Positions 8,212 through 30,004 of a stretch of DNA of 64,000 nucleotides are shown here, piece after piece. Both the position numbers and the translations under genes were made by a program. The notes under the pieces were generated by a model, which ran no database searches, had not been told where the DNA came from, and saw nothing but the letters and a program-made list of their open reading frames with translations. Numbering within the stretch: the stretch's first letter is position 1; every line of letters begins with the position of its first letter. The stretch lies in NCBI GenBank assembly GCA_947599835.1, contig CANQFQ010000005.1, positions 1-64,000 of the forward strand. Reading direction: 5' to 3'. This DNA is from an uncultured Bacilli bacterium (lineage in GTDB: Bacteria; Bacillota_I; Bacilli_A; RFN20; CAG-631).

Positions 8212-9843
8212 TTACATTTGATTTAAGGCTTCTACGCCTATTAATTCTAAACCATTTTTGATCACAATTCTAGTAATTTTTACAAGCATTAACCGTTGCT
8301 TGCTAGTTTCCATATCTTCTTCATCTATTACCTTACATTCATTATAGAATGCATGGAAATATTGTGCAAGTGTATATAAATAATTTGTCAGCTTATATGG
8401 AGACATCGTTAAAGCCGCATCTAAAACAACTTTTTCATACAAACTAATGTGCTTTAAGAGTTGTATTTCTTTTCCATGAGTTAATTTTGAACTTTCACAA
8501 AGAAATTCAATCTTTCTATCTGCGGCAGTATTTAATATGGATACACATCGAGCATGCGCATATTCAATATAATATAATGGATTTTCATTACTTTTCTTTA
8601 CCGCATCATCAATATTTAAATCCATATGCGTTGCTATACTTTTACTTGCAAAGGAATACCGCGTAGCATCGACACCAATTTCATCACAAAGATCTTTTAA
8701 AGTATACGCTTTTCCAGTACGTTTGGACATTTTTACTTCTTTTCCATCCTTCATTAAACGAACCATTTGATGAATGATGACTTGGATTTGTTCTTTATGA
8801 TATCCTAAGGCTTCAATAGCGGCTTCTAATCTTTTAATATAACCATGATGATCGGCACCTAAAATATCGACTAAATAATCAAATCCGCGTTCTAATTTAT
8901 ATCGATGATAGGCAATATCGGGTAAGAGGTAAGTATAACTACCATCTGATTTTTGAAGCACCCGATCTTTATCATCTTCAAAGGCAGTGGTTTTAAACCA
9001 TGTTGCTCCATCTTTTTGATAAATGTATCCTTTTTTATCAAGATAAGGAATGATTTCATCTACCCAGCCTTTTTGATAAAGCATTCTTTCACTGGTAAAC
9101 ACATCAAATTTAACCCTAAATTGTTCGAGAACTTTAATGATTTTATCTAATTCTGTTTGAATACCAATTTCTTTAAAATCATCCAATGGTCGATTCAATA
9201 AACGATCTTGATATTTTTCTTTTAATGTATTGGCAATGGCAATAATATCTTGTCCATGATATCCATCATCTGGAAAATCAACATGAATTCCAAGTGCTTG
9301 TTGATATCGAACATAGATAGATTTAGCTAAATTATGAATTTGATTTCCTGCATCATTTACATAATATTCACGTGTTACTTGAAATCCGACCGCAGTAAGT
9401 AAACGACAAATACAATCTCCCACAGCGGCTTGACGGGCATGGCCTAAATGCAAATCTCCGGTTGGATTTGCCGAAACAAATTCAACATCATATTTTTGAT
9501 TTTGCCCATAATTGCATGTCCCAAATCGATCGTTTTCTTGTTCAATTTTGCGCATTAAATCTTTAAATGAATTTTGAGATACAAAAAAGTTTAAAAAACC
9601 TGGTGCTGCAATTTCAATTTTATTAATTTCCGTATTTTTTTTTTCAAATTGTTCCAAAATCAATTTTGCAATTTCCATTGGGTTTCTTTTTACCATACGA
9701 GCAAGTTGCATTGCAATATTACTTGCATAATCACCTTTTGAAGTATCTTTTGGAATTTCTACCACAAAATCCACATCAGTAGGTAAATTGGCCCTAACTA
9801 ATGCTTTTTGTAATTCGCTTTTTATAACTTCATTGATGTTCAT
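8212..9843 (-). CDS. argS: arginine--tRNA ligase
   Basis: Class I 'HLGHAR' motif, a C-terminal anticodon-binding DALR-like region and 543 aa. Confidence 0.9.
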   Translation of the reverse strand: MNINEVIKSELQKALVRANLPTDVDFVVEIPKDTSKGDYASNIAMQLARMVKRNPMEIAKLILEQFEKKNTEINKIEIAAPGFLNFFVSQNSFKDLMRKIEQENDRFGTCNYGQNQKYDVEFVSANPTGDLHLGHARQAAVGDCICRLLTAVGFQVTREYYVNDAGNQIHNLAKSIYVRYQQALGIHVDFPDDGYHGQDIIAIANTLKEKYQDRLLNRPLDDFKEIGIQTELDKIIKVLEQFRVKFDVFTSERMLYQKGWVDEIIPYLDKKGYIYQKDGATWFKTTAFEDDKDRVLQKSDGSYTYLLPDIAYHRYKLERGFDYLVDILGADHHGYIKRLEAAIEALGYHKEQIQVIIHQMVRLMKDGKEVKMSKRTGKAYTLKDLCDEIGVDATRYSFASKSIATHMDLNIDDAVKKSNENPLYYIEYAHARCVSILNTAADRKIEFLCESSKLTHGKEIQLLKHISLYEKVVLDAALTMSPYKLTNYLYTLAQYFHAFYNECKVIDEEDMETSKQRLMLVKITRIVIKNGLELIGVEALNQM

Positions 9844-9942
9844 TTTATCACCATACCTATAAAATCTTTATTATTATAACAAAATAATAATAAAATTTGT
9901 ATTATTTTTTTACATAGGGGAAAACTTTTTTTAGGTGAGCAT

Positions 9943-14830: not shown

Positions 14831-16037
14831 TTGGACTATAAAAATATTGAAAAAAGTGAATCTTATATGCCAGAAGATATACAATTTGCGATTTCTCCAA
14901 CTTCAATAATTGGATCTGTTAATAGAACTCAAGTTTTACAAACTAGAGATTGGCCTTATCGTGGCATAGTGAAAATGTATATGACCTTTAACAATGTGTT
15001 AAATCAAATTGATGGAAAATATCATGATCGCATTTTTATTGGGACTGGATTTATAGAAGGACCAAATTTAATGGTCACCACTGAACACTGTGGATATAAT
15101 GATGTAACTAATGATGAAAATTACGAAGATGGCATATCAAATCCTAGATTTCCCGATAAGATTGAAGTGTATGCAGGAATAAATGGTTATAGCGAACGTT
15201 CAACATCCTATATTTATTATGCAGAAGTTTCTGTAATTAATATTCAAAAAGAATATTTTAAAACTACTTCGACAAATTATGATTGGTGTGCTATGCAACT
15301 AGACCGTGACTTGGGAGTACAAACTGGTTATTATGGTAAAATCAGTAATTTGTATGAGAGTAAGGCATCTGTCTACTCTTATGGATATCCAGGAGATAAA
15401 CCAACTAATACAATGTGGGAAACTCATGGGACACTTATTGAAAAAAAATGATTATAAATATAGTTATGATTTTGACACTTATGGCGGTCAAAGTGGTTCA
15501 CCTGTTTTCATGACCGCTACTGATGGAGCTATTTATGTGTGTGGAATACACACGTCTGGTAGTTCATCTGCTAATTATGCAACTAGAATAAATTCATTTA
15601 TTTTTCATTATTTAAATAGCTTTGTGTCTTATCATAATTATGAGCATCTTGCTGCAACAATTGTCCCAACTGATTATGGCTTTGCTGATGCTTATCCAAC
15701 TGATGACTATACAAAAACAAATTATGCCACACATACTTTATCTTCTGGATTCCAATTTCAAACAAGGAGATATCGTACTGGTTATATTCAAAATGAATAT
15801 ATTGTTATGTCGCCATTTAGAAATGGCATTACAGAAGCGTTTATCGAATATAAATTTGATGTACCAGTAACAAAAATTGAGGTTGATTTAGCACATTGGA
15901 GATCTTTATCTAATGAGTGGACGTATAGTGATTATCTCAGTGCTGTTCTTAGAATACCTGATGGTAATGGATATAATAATGTATCGATTTATTATCTTCA
16001 TCAACTAATTTTCCAACAGATAGAACTAATCCGATGA
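14831..16037 (+). pseudogene. V8/glutamyl-endopeptidase-like S1B serine protease, interrupted by a +1 frameshift in an A8 tract (15441-15448)
   Basis: Catalytic His in 'LMVTTEHCG', Asp in 'NYDWCAMQLD' and Ser in 'GGQSGSPVF' are split across two overlapping frames (14831-15451 and 15306-16037). Deleting one A restores the continuous protein '...THGTLIEKNDYKYSYDFDTYGGQSGSPVF...'. Confidence 0.65.
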
Positions 16038-16279
16038 CCTACACAATTGAATTTTCAACACCAGTTTATATATTCCAATTCTATATGCAAAGTAAACGTA
16101 TAAACACAAATGATAATAATCGGGGGAGAATTTGTATTGGCAATCTAAATATTTTTACTAAAGAGGGGTGGTATTGATTCTTAAATTGTTTTAATAAAAT
16201 ATTAGTTCAATTTTTGTTGAAATAGTTAATGAATTTTATAAAAAAGCGTTAAATATAGCATTAATAATTCAAAATATTT

Positions 16280-16310
16280 ACTCACTCATTAAATTGGGTG
16301 AGTTTTTTTA
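16280..16310 (+). terminator. rho-independent terminator at the end of the islet genes
   Basis: Stem actcac/gtgagt followed by T7. Confidence 0.4.
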
Positions 16311-16561
16311 TTATTTAAAATTTGTTGAATATAATACTAGTCATAAATAACCAATAAACGTCCTTAGAGCGAAGGTAGTTAGAATAATGGTTTTAGAAGA
16401 AAAGGCAAAAGAAATTGATTTAAATCAAAAGAACATTAAAGTTAAAAACTTTTTATAATTAAACTATTATAATCTAAAATCGTATTTGAGACGTTTTAGA
16501 TTATGTATTATCGCGTTTTAGTTTTTTAAAAAAATTTGTATTATTTGCGTTTTCATTAGAT

Positions 16562-16668
16562 ATCGACGAATAAAGCCTGATTTTTAGGTTTTTTTATTTT
16601 TCATTATAGTCATTTAAAAACAGATTTTAGGTAATGTAACAAGGCATTTTTCTAAACCCTTTTTGATG
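16562..16668 (+). repeat. direct repeat, right copy (partner of 13655-13762)
   Basis: ~95% identical to the left copy. The terminator hairpin inside it is degenerated (cct..aggttt). Confidence 0.8.
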
Positions 16669-16920
16669 TATTAATTTAGAGTGGAGACGCAAAGATACAC
16701 TTTTGATTTTACTTAGTTTTTGAAATTTAAATTTTAATTAAACCTTATAAAATAAATGCTGCGTTCCATTTATTTTCATTTTTATCGATTTTACCGATAA
16801 AAATGAACATAAATTAGAGGATCAAAAACATTTTTTACACTCATTTTTAATCGTTTTATTCATATATCATTTTTTAGCTTTTGAAATTTTATTCTTAAAA
16901 TTTTGAATTTATGATTTTAT

Positions 16921-16955
16921 AAAAATTGTGCAGCCACCAGCTGCACAATTTCAAT
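16921..16955 (-). terminator. bidirectional rho-independent terminator ending the minus-strand nine-gene operon
   Basis: 9-bp perfect stem ttgtgcagc/gctgcacaa with a 5-nt loop. T-rich tracts flank it on both strands. Confidence 0.55.
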
Positions 16956-17078
16956 TTTAAAATATTCTCGATAAAATTTAATCCTGTTTTAAAGATGAAA
17001 ATTCTTTATGAATTTCAAAAGATAAATTATTAAAAGTACATTAAATAAAATTAAAAGCAACCTTTTTAATTTATTATA

Positions 17079-19805
17079 TTACTTTAACAATAGAACTGCT
17101 AACCAAATTACAGCAATTATCGAAATTATAAAATAAATTATATAAAAAATTTTAAATTCAATATTAACTTCGTCAACACCATCTTCAACATTACATCTTA
17201 CCATGTAATATCCTCTTATAGTATTAGGAATACAACCTACAAAAAAAATCGTAAGAGGTAGAAGAGATTCGTTGTCAATCTTGCATACGAGCCAAACAAT
17301 CATAACATCTAATGCCAAAGTAAAAATAATATCAAATATCACATTAAAAACATTTATTGTTTTTATTTTGGCTCTTGTTTTTCTATCTTGTACATTTACT
17401 ACTTTTCCAAATTGATCTTCTAATTCTCTATCGTTACAAAATTCAATCACGTATCTCATTTTGCCATATAAAGAATGCTTATTTACACTTGCAGGCAGTT
17501 GACTCACTGTTTTAACTTTGTAATATTCAAATAATTCATTTAAATACATATCAAATAATTTCTTACATAAATTTAATGAATTTTTTTTAATAATTTCTAC
17601 GCAATTGTCCTTAAATAAAACTGATTTATCAATAAATACATTATCTAATATTTCTTGTTTAATTTGACATTCAGCTAAAAATTCTTTTACTTTTTTCAAT
17701 TTATCAGGTAAAAATTGAAAAATGTTTTCCGAATTAGGATGTTTTTCAAAATAACAAGTTGTCGCAGAAATGTAATTCTCATCTTCAAAAAGTACACTAG
17801 CATCATCTGCTAAAGACAAATAATTACTATATTTTCGATTAATCATGTATCGAACGATATATGCATTATAATTATATTTATCAATTGATAATAACATATT
17901 ATTATATTTTGTTAATAATTCCCATTTATCTTGACAATTAGAAATTAACAATTTTTTATCTATAAAAGTTTCAATATATTCAATAAATAAATCGTTTTCG
18001 TAACTAGGAATTAACCCTAAAATAAAATCAAAAAGAGGAATAGCTTTAGTAATATCATCATTAGGCACACTTACAATTACATTAAATAACAGATTTTCAG
18101 CTTCTTCATTGAAACTATATGAAAAAAGTTCATTTTCAATCGTTTTGAAATTATTTTGATTAAAGAAATAAGCAGATTTTTGCTTATGATCAAGCAAATT
18201 ATGAACATATAAAAAGTTATTTAACAAAGCAATACTGCATGAAGGATCCACTTCTAATATATTTTTATAATATTTGCTGGAAACAGATAATGACGGAAAT
18301 AAACTAGCAAAGGTTATATTCATATCAATATATTTTTTTGTATCATCTATAGTTTTAATTAATGAATCAAAAAGTTGTGTGTCACAGGTTTCTTTTGCAT
18401 GAGCGTACATTATATTTGTTAATTCATCTATTTTTTTATCGTCTGATTCAGATAAAGTGATATATTCTTCATAGCATATTCTATCTTGTGTATTGTAAAC
18501 TCTCATATAGAGCAAATTATAATATTTACTTCTTTCCTCAAAATTAGAAGTGGCAAGTGCTTTTTCAAAATAATCAATGTAGCCAATAGAACTACTGACA
18601 AGAGTAAAGGTTTTTTCACTATCAATTGCATTTGATGCTAAGAACAATAGCCAATAAACTTTCCCAACATTTGGATTATTCTTAATGAATTCGTTTGCAA
18701 AACGAATGGCTAAATCATATTTTTTAGAAGTTAAAAAATCTTCTATCATTTTTATTTTCGATGTATCAGAAGCGGTTACTTTAGATAATGCATTATTGCT
18801 AGTATCAATATTTCTTTTTTTGATAACTTGTTTAATGGTATCTTTTTTACTAACTTTTACTTTTGAATAATCCTTTCTATCAATATGAAAATCAATGTCG
18901 TTGACTTTGTATTTTTCAATAAATGATTTAATGATATCAAATGCATATGCATTATTATATTGAACACCTTGAATTTTTCCATTTATTTTTGGCAGCTTTT
19001 CAATAATTTGGTTGGTAAACACAATGGTAACGCTATCATTTTCTTTCGATTTATCATTAATCATTTGAATAAATCTAGTATATTCGTTTTGAACCCAAGG
19101 AGTTCTTAAATAATTTTCATCAAGACAAACGATTAACATACATTTCGCTGAGTATAAAGCATATAAAATTCTGGCTTCATATTTTGCACCAGCTTGATTT
19201 TTAATTTCAACTTCAGAATAGAAAGGCTTATAGCCCTCTTCTTTTAATCGGTAATATAAATCTTGAGCAATGCGACTATCTTCAGTAAATCCTTTGTTTT
19301 CATCACGAACTTTAACACAAATAAAACAATCATAAGATAATCCACTTTGTTTTAAATTATAAAATTCATCTTTAATTTCGTCTATTTCCACTGCTTTTTC
19401 TTGATAAATTTTTCTTTGTTCAACATTAGCATATTTTAAAGCGAGTTGATAATCCTTATCAGCAATGAATTTTTTGTTATTAATATCGTGACATATAGGT
19501 TGAAGATGTTTGTTGGCTACATCTTTTAAATATTGTATTTTATGACTTGCTAAGGCCATCCCAAAATAGGCTTCGGGTTCTGTTTCATCTTCTTCAAGAA
19601 CATTTTTAAAAGTTTCATAGGCATTATCAAATTCACACAAATCTAAATGATGTTTAGCTAATTGAATATCATTTAGATTTTCTTTTTTTATTGGTAATGT
19701 ATATGAATTGAAACATCTTTTACATTGAATTACACCATTTTTAGCCGTTGAAATATCTAAGGGTTCCCCACATGTTTCACACGTAAATTTAATTAATCCA
19801 TCCAT
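17079..19805 (-). CDS. zinc-ribbon + TIR-like domain protein with long alpha-helical region and C-terminal transmembrane tail anchor
   Basis: N-terminal C-x2-C...C-x2-C ribbon 'CETCG...CKRC'. Residues ~150-260 'YDCFICVKV...IAQDLYYRLKEEGYKPFYSE...CMLIVCLDENYLRTPWVQNEY' match the TIR fold pattern (compare plant 'DVFLSYRG...LSENYASSSWCLDEL'). The last ~25 aa 'FYIIYFIISIIAVIWLAVLLL' form a hydrophobic helix. Confidence 0.6.
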   Translation of the reverse strand: MDGLIKFTCETCGEPLDISTAKNGVIQCKRCFNSYTLPIKKENLNDIQLAKHHLDLCEFDNAYETFKNVLEEDETEPEAYFGMALASHKIQYLKDVANKHLQPICHDINNKKFIADKDYQLALKYANVEQRKIYQEKAVEIDEIKDEFYNLKQSGLSYDCFICVKVRDENKGFTEDSRIAQDLYYRLKEEGYKPFYSEVEIKNQAGAKYEARILYALYSAKCMLIVCLDENYLRTPWVQNEYTRFIQMINDKSKENDSVTIVFTNQIIEKLPKINGKIQGVQYNNAYAFDIIKSFIEKYKVNDIDFHIDRKDYSKVKVSKKDTIKQVIKKRNIDTSNNALSKVTASDTSKIKMIEDFLTSKKYDLAIRFANEFIKNNPNVGKVYWLLFLASNAIDSEKTFTLVSSSIGYIDYFEKALATSNFEERSKYYNLLYMRVYNTQDRICYEEYITLSESDDKKIDELTNIMYAHAKETCDTQLFDSLIKTIDDTKKYIDMNITFASLFPSLSVSSKYYKNILEVDPSCSIALLNNFLYVHNLLDHKQKSAYFFNQNNFKTIENELFSYSFNEEAENLLFNVIVSVPNDDITKAIPLFDFILGLIPSYENDLFIEYIETFIDKKLLISNCQDKWELLTKYNNMLLSIDKYNYNAYIVRYMINRKYSNYLSLADDASVLFEDENYISATTCYFEKHPNSENIFQFLPDKLKKVKEFLAECQIKQEILDNVFIDKSVLFKDNCVEIIKKNSLNLCKKLFDMYLNELFEYYKVKTVSQLPASVNKHSLYGKMRYVIEFCNDRELEDQFGKVVNVQDRKTRAKIKTINVFNVIFDIIFTLALDVMIVWLVCKIDNESLLPLTIFFVGCIPNTIRGYYMVRCNVEDGVDEVNIEFKIFYIIYFIISIIAVIWLAVLLLK

Positions 19806-19826
19806 ATTATTTCTTCCTTTCGCAAG

Positions 19827-20570
19827 TTATTTTTTAATATTTACTTTACACTCTTCAATAAATTTTTGAATTGTGTTTGATGGGATTGCAAAATTCATAC
19901 CTTCGGCATCCGTTATTCCTGAAACTACCATGCCAATAACTTTTCCATTAGCATCGAACAATGGACCTCCTGAATTTCCACCATTAATAGCACAATCCGT
20001 CATTATTAAAGATTTTCCATTAACATTTCTTAATTTGTCACTAACAATACCTTCAGTGATACATGTTCCATACCCTAATGAATTACCAACAGCAAACACT
20101 TTTTGACCATTCTTTATTAAGTTTGAATCTGCAAAAGTTATATGATTTGTTTTCATTGATACATCCATTAATTTTAATAATGCAAGGTCTACACCAGACC
20201 CTCTACCCCCTTGATCATCGCCAATCGCAATCACTTTAGTTGTTATTTTTTTATTATTTAAAATAACAACAACTGTTTCTGCAATGTTGCTATTAAATGT
20301 GACAACATGGGTATTCGTAATTGCATATCCATCACTTGAAATCAAAAATCCTGAACCAGCAGCAGCTTCGCCATTACTCGATTGTGTAAAGATTTCTAAA
20401 ATGGCATCACAATTTTTTTCATAAACCATAGCGCCACTATCTAATTTTTCATTTTTAAATGATGGATTTTCATCATAATTATCTTTATCAATGGTGGAAC
20501 CACAAAAGTTACAAATATATTTATTATTAACTAGTTTCATTGTGCCACCACAAACTTTACAAATTGCCAT
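19827..20570 (-). CDS. zinc-ribbon + trypsin-like (HtrA/S1C-type) serine protease
   Basis: N-terminal 'CKVCGG...CNFCG' ribbon. Catalytic triad in 'TNTHVV', 'DLALLKL' and 'GNSGGPL'. No PDZ domain. Confidence 0.65.
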   Translation of the reverse strand: MAICKVCGGTMKLVNNKYICNFCGSTIDKDNYDENPSFKNEKLDSGAMVYEKNCDAILEIFTQSSNGEAAAGSGFLISSDGYAITNTHVVTFNSNIAETVVVILNNKKITTKVIAIGDDQGGRGSGVDLALLKLMDVSMKTNHITFADSNLIKNGQKVFAVGNSLGYGTCITEGIVSDKLRNVNGKSLIMTDCAINGGNSGGPLFDANGKVIGMVVSGITDAEGMNFAIPSNTIQKFIEECKVNIKK

Positions 20571-20591
20571 AACTCTTACTCCTTTAAAAAA

Positions 20592-23372
20592 TTATTTTTC
20601 ATTTTTATAATCCCAGATTAGTTGTGATTTATGACTCCCATACCACTGTTTATCCCAATTAGATGGAGTCAATCCCAAAAATGGTTTTTTGCGTTCTAAT
20701 TTAACAATTAAGGAACTAGGGCATAATGAAAATATATCATATCCAATTTTTGAAACACTACTTGGGATAACTATACTTTTTAAAGAATCGCAATTATAAA
20801 ATGCATGAGAACCTATGCTTGATAATTTACTATTTGATTCAAAATTAATAGTTTGTAATGAGAAGCAATTAGAAAATGCAGATTCTCCGATACTTGTTAC
20901 ACTACTTGGAATAACTATGTTGGCTAATGAACTACAAACATTAAATACAGTTTTTCCGATACTTGTTAATTTACTATTTGATTCAAAATTAACAATTTTT
21001 AATGATTTGCAATTAGAAAATGCAGATTCTCCGATACTTGTTACACTACTTGGAATAACTATGTTGGCTAATGAACTACAATCATTAAATACAGTTTTTC
21101 CGATACTTGTTAATTTACTATTTGATTCAAAATTAACAATTTTTAATGATTTGCAATTAGAAAATGCAGATTCTCCGATACTTGTTACACTACTTGGGAT
21201 AACTATACTTTTTAAAGAATCGCAATTATAAAATGCATGAGAACCTATGCTTGATAATTTACTATTTGATTCAAAATTAATAGTTTGTAATGATTCACAA
21301 TTACAAAATGCATATTCTCCGATACTTGTTACACTACTTGGGATAACTATGTTTGTTATTGAAGTACAATCCCTAAAAGCCTTTTTATCTATAACTGCCA
21401 CATCATATTGCTTTCCATTAATAGTAATTGTTGATGGAATGACTACATCATTTCCTAACTGACTTGTATATTTACTTATTACTGCTTTCCCTTCTATAAT
21501 TAAATAATGTATTCCTGCTTGCTCTAAATAATTATTATCATTGATTCCCCAGTAAACAGCTTGATTATCTGGATTCCAATCATTATCCCAACCTTCTGGT
21601 TTTGATAAAGCTGCACAATAGATTGTTAAAGAATAGCAATCGTCAAATACCTCGTATCTTATACTTGTTACACTACTTGGTATTACTATGCTTTCTAAAC
21701 AATAACAATTCACAAAAGCGCGTATTCCTATACTAGTAACATCATATTGTTTTCCATTAATAGTAATTTGTGATGGTATTACCACATCATTTTTTAATTT
21801 ATTTGTATGCCCAGTTACTACTGCTTTGTTATCTATAATTACATAAATTATTCCATTTTGTTCTAAAAAATTATTTTTATTAATTTCAAAATAAACAGGG
21901 TTATGACCATAATTACATATTTTATCCCAATCTCTAGGTTTTGATGTTACTTCACAATATATTGTTAATGTACTACAATCACGAAATACAGAATCTCCAA
22001 TACTTGTTACACTACTTGGTATAACTATACTTGGTAAATATTCACATTTAGAAAAAGCCTCATCACCAATTTCTTTGACGCTACTTGGTATAATTATACT
22101 TTCCAATTTGCTTTTTCTAAATGCATTTTCTTCAATATAAATAAGACTCTTAGGTAGTTCAACACTGGTAACATCAGCATTTTCAAATGCAGATTTTTCA
22201 ATTGTTTCAATAAAATCAGGAATTTTAACTACTGTATCATGACCAATATATTTGATTAATGAAGACCCTTTTATATTGAATTTTCCTTCATCATACATTG
22301 GTTTACTAGAATGACTATTAATAATTATTTGCTTTTGAGCATTACTTAATTCACTGATTTGCTCTTGCATTTTTTTAGTTGCATTTTCTTGCTCTTTATT
22401 TTTTTCTAATTCTTTTTGCTTTTGTTCTTCTTTTCTTTTTTTACTTTCTGGAGTGTGACTCTCTACATACTGAACTATTTTATCTAAGCAACTTAAAGTA
22501 TGACTTCTATCAATACCTTGAAGTTTTTGGTTTCTTCCCGGTATTTTTTCGATAACTTCTCTATTATATATAATGACAATACTATCTGTATCTTTAGTAT
22601 CCTCGTTAATCATTTGCAAAAAACGTGAATATTCATTTTTAACCCATTTCGTCCGTAGATATTCTTCTTTGGAACAGACAATTAACATACATTCACTTTC
22701 ATATAAAGCATATAAAATTCTTGCTTCATAATCTGCACCTGTCGCATTTCTTAATTCTCTTTCTGATAAAAATGGTCTATAGCCTTTGCCTTTTAATTCA
22801 TAATACAATTCATCGGCAAATTGATAATCCTCAGTTTTATTTTGTTGATTCTCATCACTAACTTTTACACAAATAAAACAATCATAGGCCAATCCACTTT
22901 CTTTTAATTGATAGAATTCTTGTTGAATTGTATCAATTTCAGATGCTTTTTCTAAATATATTTTCTTTTGATTTTCTGTTGCATATAAAGTGGCTTTTAA
23001 ATAATTGATATCATCACTCATTTTTTTATTATTAATTTCGTGACATATAGGTTGTAAACGATTGTTTACCTCATCTTTTAGATATTGTATTTTATGGGTT
23101 GCTAAAGCCATACCAAAATAGGCTTCGGGTTCTGTATTATCTTCTTCTAATACTTTATTAAATGAATCATAGGCTTTATCAAATTCACACAAATCTAATT
23201 GATTGTTTGCTATTTGTAGTAATGTTTTTGTATTATTACTAGCATTTTCTTTAGGTAAAGTAAAAATACTATGGCAATATTTACATTCAATTATACCATT
23301 ATGGGCATTAGTTACATCTAAAGTATTTCCACAATTTTTACATACAAAATCATTTAATTGTGCACTCATCAT
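20592..23372 (-). CDS. zinc-ribbon + TIR-like domain + coiled coil + BspA-type leucine-rich-repeat protein
   Basis: Paralog of 17079-19805 in its first ~270 aa ('CKNCG...CKYCH' ribbon, TIR-like 'YDCFICVKVSDEN...CMLIVCSKEEYLRTKWVKNEY'). Then a K/E-rich coiled coil. The C-terminal half is 'IVIPSSVTSIGESAFSNC' BspA-like LRR units. Confidence 0.6.
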   Translation of the reverse strand: MMSAQLNDFVCKNCGNTLDVTNAHNGIIECKYCHSIFTLPKENASNNTKTLLQIANNQLDLCEFDKAYDSFNKVLEEDNTEPEAYFGMALATHKIQYLKDEVNNRLQPICHEINNKKMSDDINYLKATLYATENQKKIYLEKASEIDTIQQEFYQLKESGLAYDCFICVKVSDENQQNKTEDYQFADELYYELKGKGYRPFLSERELRNATGADYEARILYALYESECMLIVCSKEEYLRTKWVKNEYSRFLQMINEDTKDTDSIVIIYNREVIEKIPGRNQKLQGIDRSHTLSCLDKIVQYVESHTPESKKRKEEQKQKELEKNKEQENATKKMQEQISELSNAQKQIIINSHSSKPMYDEGKFNIKGSSLIKYIGHDTVVKIPDFIETIEKSAFENADVTSVELPKSLIYIEENAFRKSKLESIIIPSSVKEIGDEAFSKCEYLPSIVIPSSVTSIGDSVFRDCSTLTIYCEVTSKPRDWDKICNYGHNPVYFEINKNNFLEQNGIIYVIIDNKAVVTGHTNKLKNDVVIPSQITINGKQYDVTSIGIRAFVNCYCLESIVIPSSVTSIRYEVFDDCYSLTIYCAALSKPEGWDNDWNPDNQAVYWGINDNNYLEQAGIHYLIIEGKAVISKYTSQLGNDVVIPSTITINGKQYDVAVIDKKAFRDCTSITNIVIPSSVTSIGEYAFCNCESLQTINFESNSKLSSIGSHAFYNCDSLKSIVIPSSVTSIGESAFSNCKSLKIVNFESNSKLTSIGKTVFNDCSSLANIVIPSSVTSIGESAFSNCKSLKIVNFESNSKLTSIGKTVFNVCSSLANIVIPSSVTSIGESAFSNCFSLQTINFESNSKLSSIGSHAFYNCDSLKSIVIPSSVSKIGYDIFSLCPSSLIVKLERKKPFLGLTPSNWDKQWYGSHKSQLIWDYKNEK
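20760..21310. repeat. near-perfect ~144-bp tandem DNA repeats inside the LRR coding region
   Basis: Units starting at 20878, 21022 and 21166 are essentially identical (48-aa unit 'NFESNSKLTSIGKTVFNDCSSLANIVIPSSVTSIGESAFSNCKSLKIV'). The flanking segments 20761-20877 and 21195-21310 are also mutually identical. Confidence 0.7.
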
Positions 23373-25531: not shown

Positions 25532-26104
25532 TTAGTTTCCCATTTTCTTTTTTAGTTCAGCTAATTCCTTTTCAATCATTGTGTCTGTCATATTATCTGA
25601 AGTAACTTCATTACCAATAAGGTGCTCTAATTCTTCTTTTTCCTCTGGTGATGAACTAGCATTTGTTTCAAATGCAGATGAAGTTTCTTCCATGAAGTTT
25701 TCCATTTGCGTTGCTTGAATTTCAGCACCAATCATGGCTTCAGAGAATTGTTTTTGAACTTTATCAAATTCTTTTTCTTTTGTCAGTTTTAACATATCTT
25801 TACTTAAAATACTCATTCCCTTTAGAAATTCTTTCGTCATTTGTGTCATATCTTTCATTTGCGAAGTAATTTCAAAATTTAATTTCATTTCATAAATTCT
25901 TCTTTGCTGAGTAATGACCATTTTAAGTCCAGAAATCGCTAAATTATATTGCGCAGTTAAACCTTTTTCTTTTGCTTGTTTTCCAGCATCAATATAGGTT
26001 TGCTTTTGCTTTTCTAACTGTTCGATTTGTTTATTCATCGCATTAATGGTTTGTTTTATTTGCATTCTTTTGGCAATTTCTTTTCTATGATTCATAGCTA
26101 GCAT
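25532..26104 (-). CDS. Snf7/ESCRT-III-family protein with C-terminal MIM1-like motif
   Basis: Helical hairpin pattern 'GLKMVITQQRRIYEMKLNFE...KEFLKGMSILSKDM...FDKVQKQFSEAM' matches the Snf7 core. Acidic linker. C-terminus 'DTMIEKELAELKKK' fits the MIM1 consensus (D/E)xxLxxRLxxL(K/R). Its start overlaps the upstream stop (TAATG). Confidence 0.55.
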   Translation of the reverse strand: MLAMNHRKEIAKRMQIKQTINAMNKQIEQLEKQKQTYIDAGKQAKEKGLTAQYNLAISGLKMVITQQRRIYEMKLNFEITSQMKDMTQMTKEFLKGMSILSKDMLKLTKEKEFDKVQKQFSEAMIGAEIQATQMENFMEETSSAFETNASSSPEEKEELEHLIGNEVTSDNMTDTMIEKELAELKKKMGN

Positions 26105-26709
26105 TACTCCTTCTTCGTTTCAACATTTTTTTGTTTTTCATTAACTTCATATAATTCTTGTTCACTAGCTACTTGGTCTTCTTGTTCAAGCATAGCAAGT
26201 AAAGCATTATCTTGTTCATTCATACCATAAATGGTTTCATTCTTTTCATAACTTTCTTCAATAGCGTTAAATAATTCATCAGAATCAGTTAATATATCTT
26301 CTGCGGCGATTCTAATATTTAATGCTTGATTTAAAAATTTGGCCAAGCCTTTTTGATCACTTAATAGCTTATTTAAAGGCATTTTCGTGTTATTTTTAAA
26401 GAATTGATTATCATCAATTGCATTTTTTAAACGGTTTAATAATTGCGAATTATAAAGTAAATACAAAATTCTTTGTACATCTTGTTCGCGTTCTTTTTTT
26501 AAAACATTAATTTTCTTTGCATATAAAAGTTTAATGGCTTTATCGGTTTCTTTACGACCTTTTTCCATTAATTCATTGACTTTATTTTGTTTTTCCAATA
26601 ATCCATCTTCAAGTTCTTGAGATTGCTTATCTAGTTGACAAATGGCATCGACAACCTCTTCACGTGTTAATTTTTGATATTTGCTTTTAAATGGCCACAT
26701 ATCCATCAC
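26104..26709 (-). CDS. Snf7/ESCRT-III-family protein (second paralog)
   Basis: N-terminal 'MWPFKSK' resembles CHMP N-termini. 'VVDAICQLDKQSQELEDGLLEKQNKVNELMEKGRKETDKAIKLLYAKKINVLKKEREQ' matches the Snf7 alpha1-alpha2 hairpin. Acidic C-terminal region. Confidence 0.5.
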   Translation of the reverse strand: MMDMWPFKSKYQKLTREEVVDAICQLDKQSQELEDGLLEKQNKVNELMEKGRKETDKAIKLLYAKKINVLKKEREQDVQRILYLLYNSQLLNRLKNAIDDNQFFKNNTKMPLNKLLSDQKGLAKFLNQALNIRIAAEDILTDSDELFNAIEESYEKNETIYGMNEQDNALLAMLEQEDQVASEQELYEVNEKQKNVETKKE

Positions 26710-27036
26710 CTATAATTTTGAATTTCTTTCTGCTATTAATACATAAAGTTCTTTGATCATTTTAGCTGTTTTTTCAGCATCATCTTTTTCTTTATATAAC
26801 CATTGCTTGAAGTCATCAATTGCGTTGGCGATTTTTTTATCTCCATCATAAACTTTAGATAAATCAGAAGCCGTTAAATATTGAAGTTTTTCTTGAAGTT
26901 TTTTTAATTCTTCTTTGCAAGTTGCATTACTAGTTAAACTAATTAAAACATCAATCATGACCGCATTTTTTGAAATAAGTTGTTGATCTTCACTTCTTTG
27001 CGTACTTTTTAATTGTTTCTTTTGAAAATAATTCAT
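26710..27036 (-). CDS. small alpha-helical protein of unknown function (operon member)
   Basis: ORF 26710-27069. I prefer the ATG at 27034-27036 (protein starts 'MNYFQKK'), which overlaps the stop of the upstream gene by 4 nt. Predicted helical. Confidence 0.4.
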   Translation of the reverse strand: MNYFQKKQLKSTQRSEDQQLISKNAVMIDVLISLTSNATCKEELKKLQEKLQYLTASDLSKVYDGDKKIANAIDDFKQWLYKEKDDAEKTAKMIKELYVLIAERNSKL

Positions 27037-28106
27037 TTTTTGTCCTCCTCTGTTAATTTTGCTCCACATTCACTACAAAAAATTGCACCGGCATCATTTT
27101 TATGTTTACATTTTGGACATACAATCGGCTCTTTAGATACTCTAAAGCCACATTTAGGACAGAATTTATCACTTGCTTTATAAGTGGCACCGCATTTAGG
27201 ACAAACGTTATGGTGTGCACTCATTTCTTTTTGATTACCCATGATTTTTAAAACTTCATAATAAGCTTGTTTATCTCTAAGTTCTAATTCTCTTAAATAT
27301 TTTTGCTTTTCCCATTCTTTATCATTTAAGCGTTCTATTTCTTTTAAATATTCTTTTAATTGTTCTTGTTTTCTTTTTTCAGCCGCTTCTAATTCTTCTT
27401 GTTTTTTCTTTTCAGCAGCTGCAGTTTCGATTGCTGCCATTTCATCATCTTGTAAATGAATATCTTCAATAATAAAGTTAACAAGACTAATGCCCCATTC
27501 TTGGATAAATTTGTCGCTTAAAAGTTTGCCAATTTCTTCAGCAATTCTTTTCTTATTTAAGGCAAATTTGTCATAAGTCATTTTTTCACTTGTAACTACT
27601 TTTAAGAAGCAATCCGCAAATTCATTGATAACTTCACCAGAAAAACGTCTTTGGAAATCTTCAAGATTAAATTCTTTTTTAGATCCAACTACTTTTCTAA
27701 AAAATTGTTCATGATTAGAAATACTAATACCAAATTGTCCTCTCGCACCAATGGTGATGACTTTATTCGAAACTTCATCGCGATATCTAAACCGATTAGG
27801 CGTTCCCCATAAAATAATCACATTAGTTTCTTTAGGCATATAAACAACTTCCACTGAAATGCCTTTTTTCCAGTTTTTTATTTCGTTTTTACTTTCAAAA
27901 ATAGCATATGTACCACTTTCATAACTCTTAGCATTGCCACCGCCAAGGATGAGCATTGCCTTATGCGTATAAGGAACTTCTAATAAAGCCTTTTTATCGT
28001 TGACAACGCCATTTACACGCACAAATAAAATGTTATTATCATCCACACTAGCCTTACATAAATTTTGTTCAAATTTGATAACTTGGACTTTTTTATTAAA
28101 TATCAT
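27033..28106 (-). CDS. SPFH/band-7-like (YdjI-like) domain protein with C-terminal triple zinc ribbon
   Basis: C-terminus has three CxxC...CxxC pairs ('CPKCG...CPKCG...CPKCK...CSECG'). The middle is a K/E coiled coil. The N-terminal ~200 aa beta-rich domain resembles the Band_7_1/YdjI family found next to pspA in Bacillus; that assignment is inference. RBS AAAGGAG upstream. Confidence 0.45.
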   Translation of the reverse strand: MIFNKKVQVIKFEQNLCKASVDDNNILFVRVNGVVNDKKALLEVPYTHKAMLILGGGNAKSYESGTYAIFESKNEIKNWKKGISVEVVYMPKETNVIILWGTPNRFRYRDEVSNKVITIGARGQFGISISNHEQFFRKVVGSKKEFNLEDFQRRFSGEVINEFADCFLKVVTSEKMTYDKFALNKKRIAEEIGKLLSDKFIQEWGISLVNFIIEDIHLQDDEMAAIETAAAEKKKQEELEAAEKRKQEQLKEYLKEIERLNDKEWEKQKYLRELELRDKQAYYEVLKIMGNQKEMSAHHNVCPKCGATYKASDKFCPKCGFRVSKEPIVCPKCKHKNDAGAIFCSECGAKLTEEDKK

Positions 28107-28687
28107 AATGCACTGTACTCCTTTAGATAAATAGTATATTTCGCCTTTATAATAACCCCCCCCGCTTTATGTCAACTTAAAATTACATTTTTCGACATTG
28201 GTGTTACAAAAAGCATTCAAAGACCTTATATAGACTACATTTGGAAGCTATTCCATCCTCATTATTTTTAGAAAAAGCAACACAAAAAACGGAACTTTGG
28301 ATTCAAAAAGTGAATGCTTAGAACTCTATTTAATCATTAAAAAAATGACACTCATTGGCCTAGAATTGAGCGTATCATGGCTAGTGAAAGTATAGGTAAT
28401 CGCCTATAATCAAACGTAAGATTCTTATCAAAAAGCAAGTTTATTTTGTCTTATGATTTCTATTTAAATATACGATTATATCGGTAATTTTAAAAGTTTT
28501 CAAAATAACGTGTGCCTCATTTTTATGCATCAAAGAGGTCTATTCAAAACAATGATGAAATTCCTTCATCATAACCGCTATTTCCTTTTTTTTGAAGCAA
28601 TTTAATATCATGTTTTCCTTTTTTTTGAAGTTTTTTAGGCGTCTACTTGCCACTTTTTTGAAATTGTGATATTATTTCATTGTAAGG

Positions 28688-30004
28688 ATGGTGCTATTTA
28701 TGGAACGACAAGCTATGGAAAATCTAATCGATTGGAAACAAAATCATAAAGGAAAACCATTAATTATTTATGGCCCTAGGCAAGTAGGAAAAACTTATTT
28801 GGTTAGAGAATTTGCTAAAAAATTTTATGATAATATTTTTGAAATCAATTTTGAAATTGATGATAATGCTAATAAAATATTTGAAGATAATTTAACTATC
28901 AAACAACTTCTAAAGCGGTTATCGGCCTACGATGTTGATAATATCATCATTCCTAAAAGAACGCTTATATTTTTAGATGAAGTTCAAAAATGCCCAAGAG
29001 CAATAACAGCCTTAAAATCATTTGCACAAGATGGTAATTATGATGTCATTGCCTCTGGTTCCATGCTTGGTGTTACTTTAAATAGTGTATCATCCTATCC
29101 AGTAGGTTATGTTGAAACAATCTATTTAAAACCTTTGTCATTTAAAGAATTCTTATGGGCTAATAAATATAGTGATAGTCATGTTCAAGACCTCAAAGAA
29201 TATTATAAAAACGAACAAAAGGTACCCGAAGGATTACATAATATTTATAATAATTTATTTTTACAATATATTGTTGTTGGCGGTATGCCAGAAGTCGTAC
29301 AAACCTTTATAGAAACGAATAATATTGGATTAGTAGTTAAAAAACAACAATCTATTATTGATAGCTACAGCAAAGATATTGCTAAATATTCAACAAACTT
29401 AATCAAAGAAAGAGTTAGAGAATGTTATCATTCGATTCCTGATCAATTAGCAATGGATAATAAAAAATTCCAATATAAATTGCTTCAATCTGGAGGTAAA
29501 TCAAGTCGTTTTTATTCTAGTATCCAATGGATTGAAGATGCTGGGCTAATTAATAAAATATATCGTTTGAAAACATTTGATATTCCTTTAAGAGCCTATC
29601 AAGATAAGTCTTGTTTCAAATTATATTTCATGGATACAGGTTTATTACTAGCTATGTATGGTGGTAAAAATCTCCAAGGAAAGATATTAGCGGGTGAAAT
29701 AGGAATCTTTAAAGGAGCTTTGTTTGAAAATGTAATTGCTCAAATTCTTGTTGGTAATGGCTTAGTCCCTTATTATTATCGTCGTGATGATCGGTTAGAA
29801 ATTGATTTTGTAATTACACTAGATGATAAAATTGTACCAATTGAAGTAAAAGCAGGAACAAATACCAAATCAAAAAGTTTCATAAATATTATCGAGAAAC
29901 AAAACTTAGAATATGGAATCAAATTATCCATGAACAATGTGAATTGTACTAATCCAAAATATAAATGTTTTCCATTATATATGACCATGTTTATTAAAGA
30001 TTAA
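28688..30004 (+). CDS. AAA+ ATPase of the AAA_14/DUF4143 family
   Basis: Walker A 'IIYGPRQVGKTYL' and Walker B 'LIFLDEVQ', with a C-terminal DUF4143-like region. The true start may be the ATG at 28700 ('MERQAMENL'). Confidence 0.55.
   Translation: MVLFMERQAMENLIDWKQNHKGKPLIIYGPRQVGKTYLVREFAKKFYDNIFEINFEIDDNANKIFEDNLTIKQLLKRLSAYDVDNIIIPKRTLIFLDEVQKCPRAITALKSFAQDGNYDVIASGSMLGVTLNSVSSYPVGYVETIYLKPLSFKEFLWANKYSDSHVQDLKEYYKNEQKVPEGLHNIYNNLFLQYIVVGGMPEVVQTFIETNNIGLVVKKQQSIIDSYSKDIAKYSTNLIKERVRECYHSIPDQLAMDNKKFQYKLLQSGGKSSRFYSSIQWIEDAGLINKIYRLKTFDIPLRAYQDKSCFKLYFMDTGLLLAMYGGKNLQGKILAGEIGIFKGALFENVIAQILVGNGLVPYYYRRDDRLEIDFVITLDDKIVPIEVKAGTNTKSKSFINIIEKQNLEYGIKLSMNNVNCTNPKYKCFPLYMTMFIKD

Follow-up and report, generated by a model that had tools for sequence, protein, structure and literature searches.

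The 64,000-nt window analysed here (contig CANQFQ010000005.1 of an uncultured Bacilli bacterium; GC ~30%) encodes two paralogous proteins, P1 and P2, in which a zinc ribbon, a TPR-like linker and a TIR domain form a shared head that is followed by unrelated tails. Both genes lie in a minus-strand operon together with genes for an SPFH protein, an ESCRT-III-like protein, an ATPase with two AAA domains and a trypsin-like protease, and a member of the same head family is obligately linked to this operon, being present in every operon examined. We read the arrangement as a receptor-like TIR family built into an SPFH/ESCRT-III-like/AAA operon, in which it would act as sensor and effector in an immune or stress response, and we give this reading an even chance of being right.

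Residues 7–299 of P1 and 9–306 of P2 are 57% identical (E 4e-110), and beyond that no similarity is found, as had been proposed in a sequence-only reading of this DNA, which described paralogous heads with divergent C-termini. The CxxC...CxxC ribbon with which both proteins were said to open is equally well supported. In alignment A1 of the head module (51 sequences), which also underlies the structural model, the ribbon cysteines of P1 (C9, C12, C28 and C31) are each at least 90% conserved among the 51 relatives. An AlphaFold2 (AF2) model of P1 residues 1–310 (mean pLDDT 92, pTM 0.86) predicts a single compact unit that runs from the small ribbon through three TPR-like helices (41–87), a beta-hairpin (90–105) and two further helices (117–153) to a beta/alpha domain (157–301). 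Two lengths given in the sequence-only reading need correction. The linker comprises ~120 residues (~37–155), with a TPR-like hairpin, the beta-hairpin and helices, rather than ~70, and the TIR region covers ~145 residues (about 157–301) rather than ~110.

P1 and P2 are genuine TIR-domain proteins. Both score above the curated Pfam gathering cut-off for TIR_2 (28 bits), P1 with 38.7 and P2 with 43.0 bits, and P2 also reaches 29.3 bits with the classic TIR model (cut-off 21.3). The predicted fold of the P1 head is flavodoxin-like alpha/beta and superposes on solved TIR domains. Neither a different fold nor a lack of TIR profile matches, the two outcomes named beforehand as speaking against a TIR domain, was observed. 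The motifs that had suggested a TIR domain by eye map onto its elements, with YDCFICVKV forming strand A, CMLIVC strand C and WV(Q/K)NEY the WxxxE motif. Residues invariant across the family include F161, C163, K165 and V166 of strand A; F195, S197 and E198; Y209 and E210; and W237, E241, Y242 and R244. The catalytic-position glutamate at the start of helix C, proposed earlier as the residue to look for, is present in both proteins, and neither W237/E241 of P1 nor W243/E247 of P2 varies in the sets of 51 and 26 aligned relatives. When PDB sequences were searched with a profile of the whole module, TPR and LRR (leucine-rich repeat) matches swamped the result. A TIR-only profile placed W237/E241 on the W and E of WCLDEL in the solved RUN1 TIR domain, with a weak E value of 0.09. 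By residue count we take this glutamate to be RUN1 E100, the residue that Horsefield et al. reportedly identified in 2019 as the catalytic glutamate (cited in PMC7075850). The weakness of this match to solved TIRs by sequence profile favours the view that the resemblance is spurious and reflects a generic flavodoxin-like or nucleoside-deoxyribosyltransferase-like fold, or chance motif similarity. That view is hardly credible, however, given TIR_2 scores above the curated threshold in P1, P2 and most relatives and a WxxxE motif in register with that of RUN1.

The TIR domains of P1 and P2 may cleave NAD(P)+. The conserved glutamate permits such an activity and does not prove it, since this residue is necessary, not sufficient, for NADase activity (PMC7075850). 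By Pfam, no NTPase of the NB-ARC or NACHT type lies between the TIR domain and the repeats in P1 or P2; the AAA ATPase is a separate gene.

Past the head, the helical domain of P1 has no Pfam or NCBIfam match and leads into a membrane region. P1 had been described as tail-anchored by a single transmembrane (TM) helix, but a Kyte-Doolittle scan, which was used for the operon proteins, finds two strong hydrophobic segments (about 816–845 and 879–908) with a weaker one between them, and several relatives with a P1-type helical domain have three TM segments. P2 ends, as proposed, in BspA-type LRRs, with Pfam LRR_5 scoring 327.7 bits over four stretches. Tandem repeats of 144 bp (3.8 copies, 88% match) and 339 bp (1.9 copies) run through this region. 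P2 shows no hydrophobic TM segment and no signal peptide, and its tail is predicted to be a cytoplasmic LRR array. Variable, binding-type or membrane C-termini of this kind are as expected of sensors. Antisense to the LRR region, a 138-aa open reading frame (ORF; 20815–21231, plus strand) is almost certainly not a gene, because its sequence is repetitive and falls on the 144-bp tandem repeat.

The head module defines a wider family. Its relatives form 62 protein clusters at 42–55% identity, all from metagenomes or metagenome-assembled genomes, and their tails include LRR_5, TPR, Sel1, TM2, VIT1, holin-like domains, zinc ribbons and the C-terminal domain of ribosomal protein L7/L12. P1, P2 and the AAA ATPase are singletons in the protein-cluster look-up, and the closest family member is at most 57% identical. 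Among GTDB contigs, with one genome per species, the head module gave 136 matches, of which the best 80 were taken, covering 77 loci. Uncultured gut Clostridia, under the names Christensenella, Christensenellaceae, Candidatus Coproplasma or Pumilibacter muris, account for nearly all of these 80, and a few are labelled otherwise, for example as Candidatus Pelethenecus, Lachnospiraceae or Bacillota. Among the best 80 of the 136 matches, genomes carry up to at least seven copies, median identity is 63% within genomes against 53% between them, and 26 of 63 copies find their best match in the same genome, a pattern that indicates an ongoing, lineage-specific expansion. Many other family members are orphans in unrelated genomic contexts. 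A search with the N-terminal head alone, aimed at combinations of the head with effectors other than TIR, returned fragments only.

A simple motif and hydrophobicity count over the 93 family genes with complete 3′ ends gives an overview of the tails. LRRs without a TM segment, as in P2, are found in 38 of the 93; a TM region with a short tail, as in P1, in 18; TM segments followed by another domain in 19; TM segments followed by LRRs in nine; interleaved LRR and TM predictions in two; and neither LRR nor TM in seven. Tails with the L7/L12 C-terminal domain (PF00542) occur in one operon-embedded gene (L087, 10577–12757) and in P0007, P0009 and P0011. In the ribosomal protein, this domain is a module that binds translational GTPases.

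Four genes with TM segments followed by LRRs were confirmed by Pfam and ORF checks. The simplest (L049, 10001–12232) encodes the ribbon, the TIR domain, a KYRRKRAK stretch, one TM segment and then LRR_5 repeats. Two others (L041, 10001–14845; L008, 10001–16006) carry a P1-type helical domain, three TM segments and large LRR_5 arrays, and the fourth (L006, 3080–5815) has five TM segments ahead of its LRRs. In these relatives, whose topology was predicted from hydrophobicity and flanking charges alone, the LRRs are placed outside the cell because the number of TM segments is odd and positive charges lie on the TIR side. They are thus predicted to have the layout of a Toll-like receptor (TLR) in reversed order, with a cytoplasmic TIR domain and outside LRRs. 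Neither window protein has the complete set of outside LRR, TM segment and cytoplasmic TIR domain, as P2 lacks the TM segment and P1 the LRRs. A further family member with the TIR-TM-LRR layout and a large C-terminal LRR_5 array lies at 925–9936 of L049.

Such relatives, with one, three or five TM segments and C-terminal LRR_5 repeats, are what would be expected if the family consisted of surface receptors or adhesins that show BspA-type LRRs to host, mucus or other microbes while the TIR head relays or anchors. P2, without TM segment, and P1, without ectodomain, would then be derived or partial versions acting alongside paralogs that span the membrane. According to its Pfam description, the BspA-type LRR is typically a surface module, and the organisms are gut commensals. 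The largest tail class nevertheless has LRRs without TM segment or signal peptide, other tails (TPR, Sel1, L7/L12_C) are intracellular binding modules, and adhesion would leave the obligate linkage to cytoplasmic AAA, protease and Snf7-like genes unexplained. We therefore consider a surface role of this kind quite improbable.

The window operon comprises eight genes that run from 28106 down to 17079 with intergenic gaps of 0–69 nt, in the order SPFH, h119, h201, h190, double AAA ATPase, P2, zinc-ribbon trypsin-like protease and P1 (Table 1). A promoter-like site is located just upstream of the SPFH gene, which is also the first gene of related operons. Apart from P1, no operon protein has a predicted TM segment. 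The protease, which has no PDZ domain either, is cytoplasmic, and it carries an N-terminal ribbon of the same type as the TIR proteins (CxxCG-x11-15-CxxC; Zn_Ribbon_TF 24.9 bits, below cut-off).

The same cassette recurs elsewhere. When the operon proteins of the window were compared by tblastn with the fetched loci and their 10-kb flanks, the full cassette was found in L012, L017, L050, L053, L062, L066, L067 and L068, and a partial one, with contig ends or a shorter ATPase, in L075, L078, L081, L082 and L083. It consists of an SPFH-zinc-ribbon gene, h119 (not always), h201, h190, one to three head-TIR genes with varying tails, the double AAA ATPase and the zinc-ribbon trypsin-like protease, the last being found in most related operons. 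Identity to the window proteins is 65–72% for h190, 65–70% for the AAA ATPase and 60–70% for h201, whereas the TIR genes are merely 44–50% identical and shift position, standing before or after the ATPase. Because these loci had been found via their TIR gene, an independent sample of four long contigs was picked solely for encoding an h190 homolog. The cassette is present in all four, as is a head-TIR gene. Two of these head-TIR genes are divergent (26–27% identity), and the tails in these operons consist of Sel1 repeats, of multi-TM regions, or of two TM segments with an L7/L12 C-terminal domain (L087); the multi-TM family gene of L085 has no precomputed Pfam match at all. The simplest reading of these distributions is a hub-and-spoke organization, with presumably one cassette per genome and several dispersed head-TIR genes.

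Serine and tyrosine recombinases and REP_ORF2-G2P replication genes stand beside the cassette in two of the four h190-selected contigs (L084, 1024–7765; L085, 16766–20564), and the cassette may occupy a hot spot of integration or adjoin mobile elements. In L010, L031 and L041 (~8600–9900 in each), an SPFH-zinc-ribbon paralog lies directly upstream of a family member while the rest of the cassette is absent within the 10-kb flanks, which suggests a direct SPFH-TIR partnership. The adjoining family members have a helical domain with three to four predicted TM segments (L010, L041) or a three-TM tail (L031). A distant variant of higher GC content (L005, 2546–5365; L006, 6552–9338) combines a 337–350-aa coiled-coil protein, a single AAA ATPase, three or four TIR-LRR genes and a 196-aa h190-like protein of 29% identity.

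In archaea and eukaryotes, ESCRT-III and Vps4 form the core machine for membrane scission and repair, and two proteins of the operon resemble them. h190 has no direct Pfam match. Its AF2 model (pLDDT 67) shows a long helical hairpin and three shorter helices, for which the top Foldseek matches in the PDB are CHMP2A-CHMP3, CHMP1B, CdvB, Vipp1 and Asgard ESCRT-IIIB, with weak E values of 0.1–2. Searched against 1.84 billion representative proteins, the h190 profile found 380 relatives, and some distant ones match Pfam Snf7 (cut-off 27.3 bits), P0299 with 38.3 and P0339 with 27.3 bits. Because these profile relatives reach the Snf7 threshold, h190 is assigned to the Snf7/ESCRT-III superfamily. 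The conserved helix at its C-terminus, MIEKELxELKKKM, follows the MIM1 pattern by eye, and the h190-like protein of the L005 variant ends in the MIM1-like DDEITAKIERLKR. Searches of PDB sequences with single h190 and h201 sequences and with the h190 profile gave nothing useful. As hhalign and hmmsearch detect no relationship between h190, h201 and h119, we do not class the latter two as ESCRT-III-like.

The first AAA domain of the ATPase is SpoVK/CbbX/EccA-like (NCBIfam spore_V_K 295 bits, below cut-off). The second scores 190 bits with CdvC (cut-off 650) and similarly with CDC48 and PAN, all below cut-off, and Vps4_C is sub-threshold at 19.4 bits (cut-off 21.3). No MIT domain was found by Pfam in the N-terminal helical domain of the ATPase. 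These scores are consistent with a second domain of the classical AAA clade that is Vps4-clade-like (CdvC/Vps4-like). P0243, P0296, P0303 and P0326 are fusion proteins with an h190-family Snf7-like domain at the N-terminus, joined to a RuvB-like AAA ATPase and a nuclease domain of the NERD or TnsA-like type. An ESCRT-III-like domain here forms part of a protein layout that is characteristic of conflict systems.

In plants and animals, innate immunity is built around TIR domains and LRR sensors. A sensor-effector role of P1 and P2 would most likely work as follows. The variable tails would bind a trigger, which might be a phage or other foreign protein or a perturbation of the envelope or membrane. 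Binding would cluster the heads at the membrane on an SPFH/ESCRT-III-like platform, to which they would dock through their zinc ribbons, and clustering or TIR-TIR assembly would turn on the TIR domains for NAD(P)+ cleavage or synthesis of a nucleotide signal. The AAA ATPase would reset, disassemble or remodel the assembly, and the protease, with its N-terminal ribbon of the same type, might process a component such as the charged spacer between the TIR domain and the LRRs of P2. An immune or stress-response role, defence included, is plausible. In favour of conflict or defence are the invariant glutamate, the paralog expansion and the shuffling of tail repeats, together with the set of TIR, trypsin-like and AAA proteins, the nuclease fusions of h190-type proteins and the integrases by two of four cassettes. 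TIR and trypsin-like effectors with an AAA+ ATPase are typical of conflict systems (PMC7159879).

Several results weigh against a defence role. PADLOC-DB 2.0, run on all operon proteins, returned nothing for P1, P2, h190 or h201, and generic matches for the AAA ATPase (IetA, TRIP13) and the protease (RT-Protease). With NCBIfam, the TIR proteins matched just the Thoeris model ThcB4, at 21.3 bits against a cut-off of 220. No signal-activated effector of the ThsA type (SIR2/SLOG, Macro, TM) was recognisable in the operon by Pfam, PADLOC or NCBIfam, and neither the TIR family nor h190 was found on IMG/VR viral contigs. TIR groups for which no NADase activity has been reported often have the conserved glutamate too (PMC7075850), and a cytoplasmic LRR sensor such as P2 would be unusual for LRRs of the BspA type. 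Lastly, the operon core, 60–70% identical between species, has the look of a feature that the lineage carries in one copy. The sequence-only reading had proposed sensor-effector defence from the place of P1 and P2 in an ESCRT-like operon. Its operon link stands, including in the four h190-selected contigs, and the tails are variable and sensor-like as it supposed; it is the defence part that the missing PADLOC matches, the absence from IMG/VR and the conserved core speak against.

Strong conservation of the core across species is easier to reconcile with a housekeeping role at the membrane than with a defence island of patchy occurrence. The operon could accordingly encode a machine that maintains or remodels the cell membrane, for instance in repair, vesicle formation or protein sorting. 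The zinc-ribbon-TIR proteins would serve it as membrane or cargo adaptors, comparable to the ESCRT adaptors that act upstream, and the TIR domain would function chiefly as an oligomerisation scaffold or NAD-sensing regulator and not as an immune effector. Apart from the identities of h190 and the ATPase given above, in families of hundreds of clusters, this explanation can draw on the known coupling of SPFH and PspA proteins in B. subtilis (PMC8581546), on SPFH-coiled-coil-zinc-ribbon proteins in archaeal ESCRT loci (PMC10936438), on membrane anchoring in about half of the family, on the lack of PADLOC defence models for the TIR proteins and on the many TIR domains that serve as assembly scaffolds (PMC7075850). 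Other observations speak against it. The WxxxE glutamate and ~25 other residues are invariant in a family that has otherwise diverged to 42–55% identity, which speaks for an active site and not simply for an interface. Lineage-specific paralog expansion and tail repeat shuffling are, moreover, typical of recognition families, and trypsin-like proteases and TIR domains are common effectors of conflict systems (PMC7159879). We therefore think a purely housekeeping role possible, though unlikely.

On a more far-reaching reading, a clade of gut Clostridia would run an ESCRT-III/AAA/SPFH membrane machine whose inputs come from a multigene family of TIR receptors, both cytoplasmic TIR-LRR proteins and mirror-image transmembrane TLRs. 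We advance this reading tentatively and regard it as less than probable. If it is true, prokaryotes would here provide their first case of TIR signalling coupled directly to membrane remodelling of the ESCRT type, which might serve damage- or phage-triggered membrane repair, shedding or suicide. The arrangement of Snf7-like protein, Vps4-clade-like AAA ATPase, SPFH and TIR proteins recurs across a clade of abundant, mostly uncultured human and animal gut bacteria. Should the TIR domains be active and the link functional, the operon would offer a tractable system for the control of TIR assemblies at membranes, TLR-style layouts would exist in bacteria, and a new class of immune or stress modules would have been overlooked by current defence-finder tools. 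If the TIR domains prove to be scaffolds, a bacterial ESCRT-like machine would turn out to use adaptors of a new kind.

The surroundings of the operon are those of an ordinary chromosome, with genes for a class A penicillin-binding protein (PBP), YitT, a DNA alkylation repair protein, a DUF4143 ATPase, a GH16 enzyme and an ABC transporter. The idea of a TIR gene carried by a phage or prophage was rejected because the flanking genes (PBP, YitT, ABC transporter, GH16) are ordinary chromosomal ones. The genes flanking the window operon show no synteny with those flanking related operons. Immediately upstream, a divergent gene encodes an AAA_14/DUF4143 ATPase (28688–30004, plus strand) that is not conserved beside related operons. 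Downstream of P1, ~1 kb of very AT-rich DNA (16038–17078; bin 16001–18000 has 22.8% GC) contains no ORF of at least 50 aa and one terminator-like hairpin on the plus strand (16280–16303). Beyond it lie two overlapping plus-strand ORFs of 206 and 243 aa (14831–16037) with the trypsin/V8-like motifs TEHCG and GGQSGSPVF. Neither matches Pfam at E 1e-3, and together they resemble a single serine protease gene that a frameshift has broken in two.

Table 1 Features of the P1/P2 operon, in window coordinates
Feature	Position	Strand	Basis or remark
Best promoter-like site, TTGAAA-17-TATAAT	28475..28503	-	Consensus scan, 11/12 positions; pattern match alone
SPFH/Band_7_1 protein with coiled coil and C-terminal zinc ribbons, 357 aa	27033..28106	-	Band_7_1 58 bits; Zn_Ribbon_1, DZR
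h119, small helical protein	26710..27069	-	Occurs in most related operons
h201, conserved helical protein	26104..26709	-	Orthologs in every related operon
h190, Snf7/ESCRT-III-like protein	25532..26104	-	AF2 layout, Foldseek, profile relatives with Pfam Snf7
Double AAA+ ATPase, 690 aa	23390..25462	-	Pfam AAA x2 and AAA_lid_6
P2, zinc ribbon, TPR-like linker, TIR, charged coiled-coil spacer, BspA-type LRRs; 926 aa	20592..23372	-	ORF
P2 TIR domain, aa 161-308	22449..22892	-	E247 of WxxxE at codon 22632-22634
P2 LRR_5 repeat region with recent internal duplications	20595..22277	-	Pfam LRR_5, tandem repeats
Trypsin-fold, HtrA-like serine protease with zinc ribbon, 247 aa	19827..20570	-	Trypsin_2 101 bits
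P1, zinc ribbon, TPR-like linker, TIR, ~510-aa helical domain, 2-3 TM; 908 aa	17079..19805	-	ORF
P1 zinc ribbon, aa 7-36 (C9/C12/C28/C31)	19698..19787	-	Small beta elements in AF2 model
P1 linker, aa 37-155 (TPR-like helices 41-87, beta-hairpin 90-105, helices 117-153)	19341..19697	-	
P1 TIR domain, aa 156-302	18900..19340	-	E241 of WxxxE at codon 19083-19085
P1 helical juxtamembrane domain, aa 303-812	17370..18899	-	Homologous domain at same position in 14 loci, 31-40% identity
P1 C-terminal membrane region, aa 813-908	17082..17369	-	TM ~816-845, weaker ~848-866, TM ~879-908

Among known systems, Thoeris also has a TIR protein encoded beside other effector-like genes, and a Thoeris variant with a caspase-like protease shows that a pairing of TIR protein and protease exists. 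The window protease differs in having a trypsin fold and a zinc ribbon, and PADLOC found no Thoeris match. When compared with the enzymatic immune TIRs SARM1, RUN1, RPP1, RPS4, ThsB, AbTir, TIR-STING, TIR-SAVED and SPARTA, P1 and P2 lack a partner domain of the NB-ARC/STAND NTPase, SAM/ARM, STING, SAVED or Argonaute type. Their TIR domain is instead preceded by a zinc ribbon and a TPR-like/beta-hairpin module, and their genomic partner is an ESCRT-III-like/AAA/SPFH operon.

With TLRs, the family shares the presence of LRRs and a TIR domain in one polypeptide, and in the four confirmed relatives a TIR domain predicted to be cytoplasmic with LRRs past the membrane. In contrast to TLRs, the TIR domain is N-terminal, so that the order is reversed, the LRRs are of the BspA/LRR_5 type and an extra zinc-ribbon/TPR head is present. 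The resemblance is probably one of convergent architecture rather than of common descent of the whole layout.

The association of the SPFH protein with a Snf7-like one parallels SPFH-PspA coupling in B. subtilis, where YdjI links PspA to the membrane (PMC8581546), and the SPFH gene itself has a parallel in the SPFH-coiled-coil-zinc-ribbon proteins of archaeal ESCRT loci (PMC10936438). Archaeal loci of this kind also resemble the window operon in that SPFH and ESCRT-III superfamily genes are accompanied by one for an AAA ATPase, which in the window may belong to the Vps4/CdvC clade. Descriptions of PspA/ESCRT-III-SPFH systems (PMC8581546, PMC10936438, PMC11237479) include no Toll-type TIR domain or trypsin-like protease as operon member, and the window ATPase has two AAA domains. 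A survey of PSP (phage shock protein) systems associates PspA with double-AAA and Band-7 proteins and lists no Toll-type TIR partner (PMC11237479). According to reviews, bacteria have not been found to possess ESCRT systems (PMC10936438) and appear to lack Vps4-like ATPases (2025; PMC7619361).

TIR domains, TIR-LRR combinations and PspA-SPFH links are each already known singly. In the literature, whose coverage was incomplete so that this is absence of evidence, we found no description of TIR domains with ESCRT, PspA, Vps4 or SPFH proteins or of bacterial TLR-like LRR-TM-TIR proteins. Within that coverage, the zinc-ribbon-TPR-TIR head family, its transmembrane members with reversed TLR layout and its obligate place in a bacterial Snf7-like/AAA/SPFH/protease operon appear to be undescribed.

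A further parallel is offered by the conflict systems of Kaur, Burroughs, Iyer and Aravind (2020; PMC7159879). The window operon differs from these in having no vWA-MoxR, STAND/iSTAND or double-GTPase core, its own core being formed by SPFH, Snf7-like and double AAA proteins, and in its hosts, which are unicellular gut anaerobes. Both nevertheless combine TIR and trypsin-like genes with an AAA+ ATPase, and in both the effectors share a small N-terminal domain, here the zinc ribbon, and carry variable repeat modules (PMC7159879).

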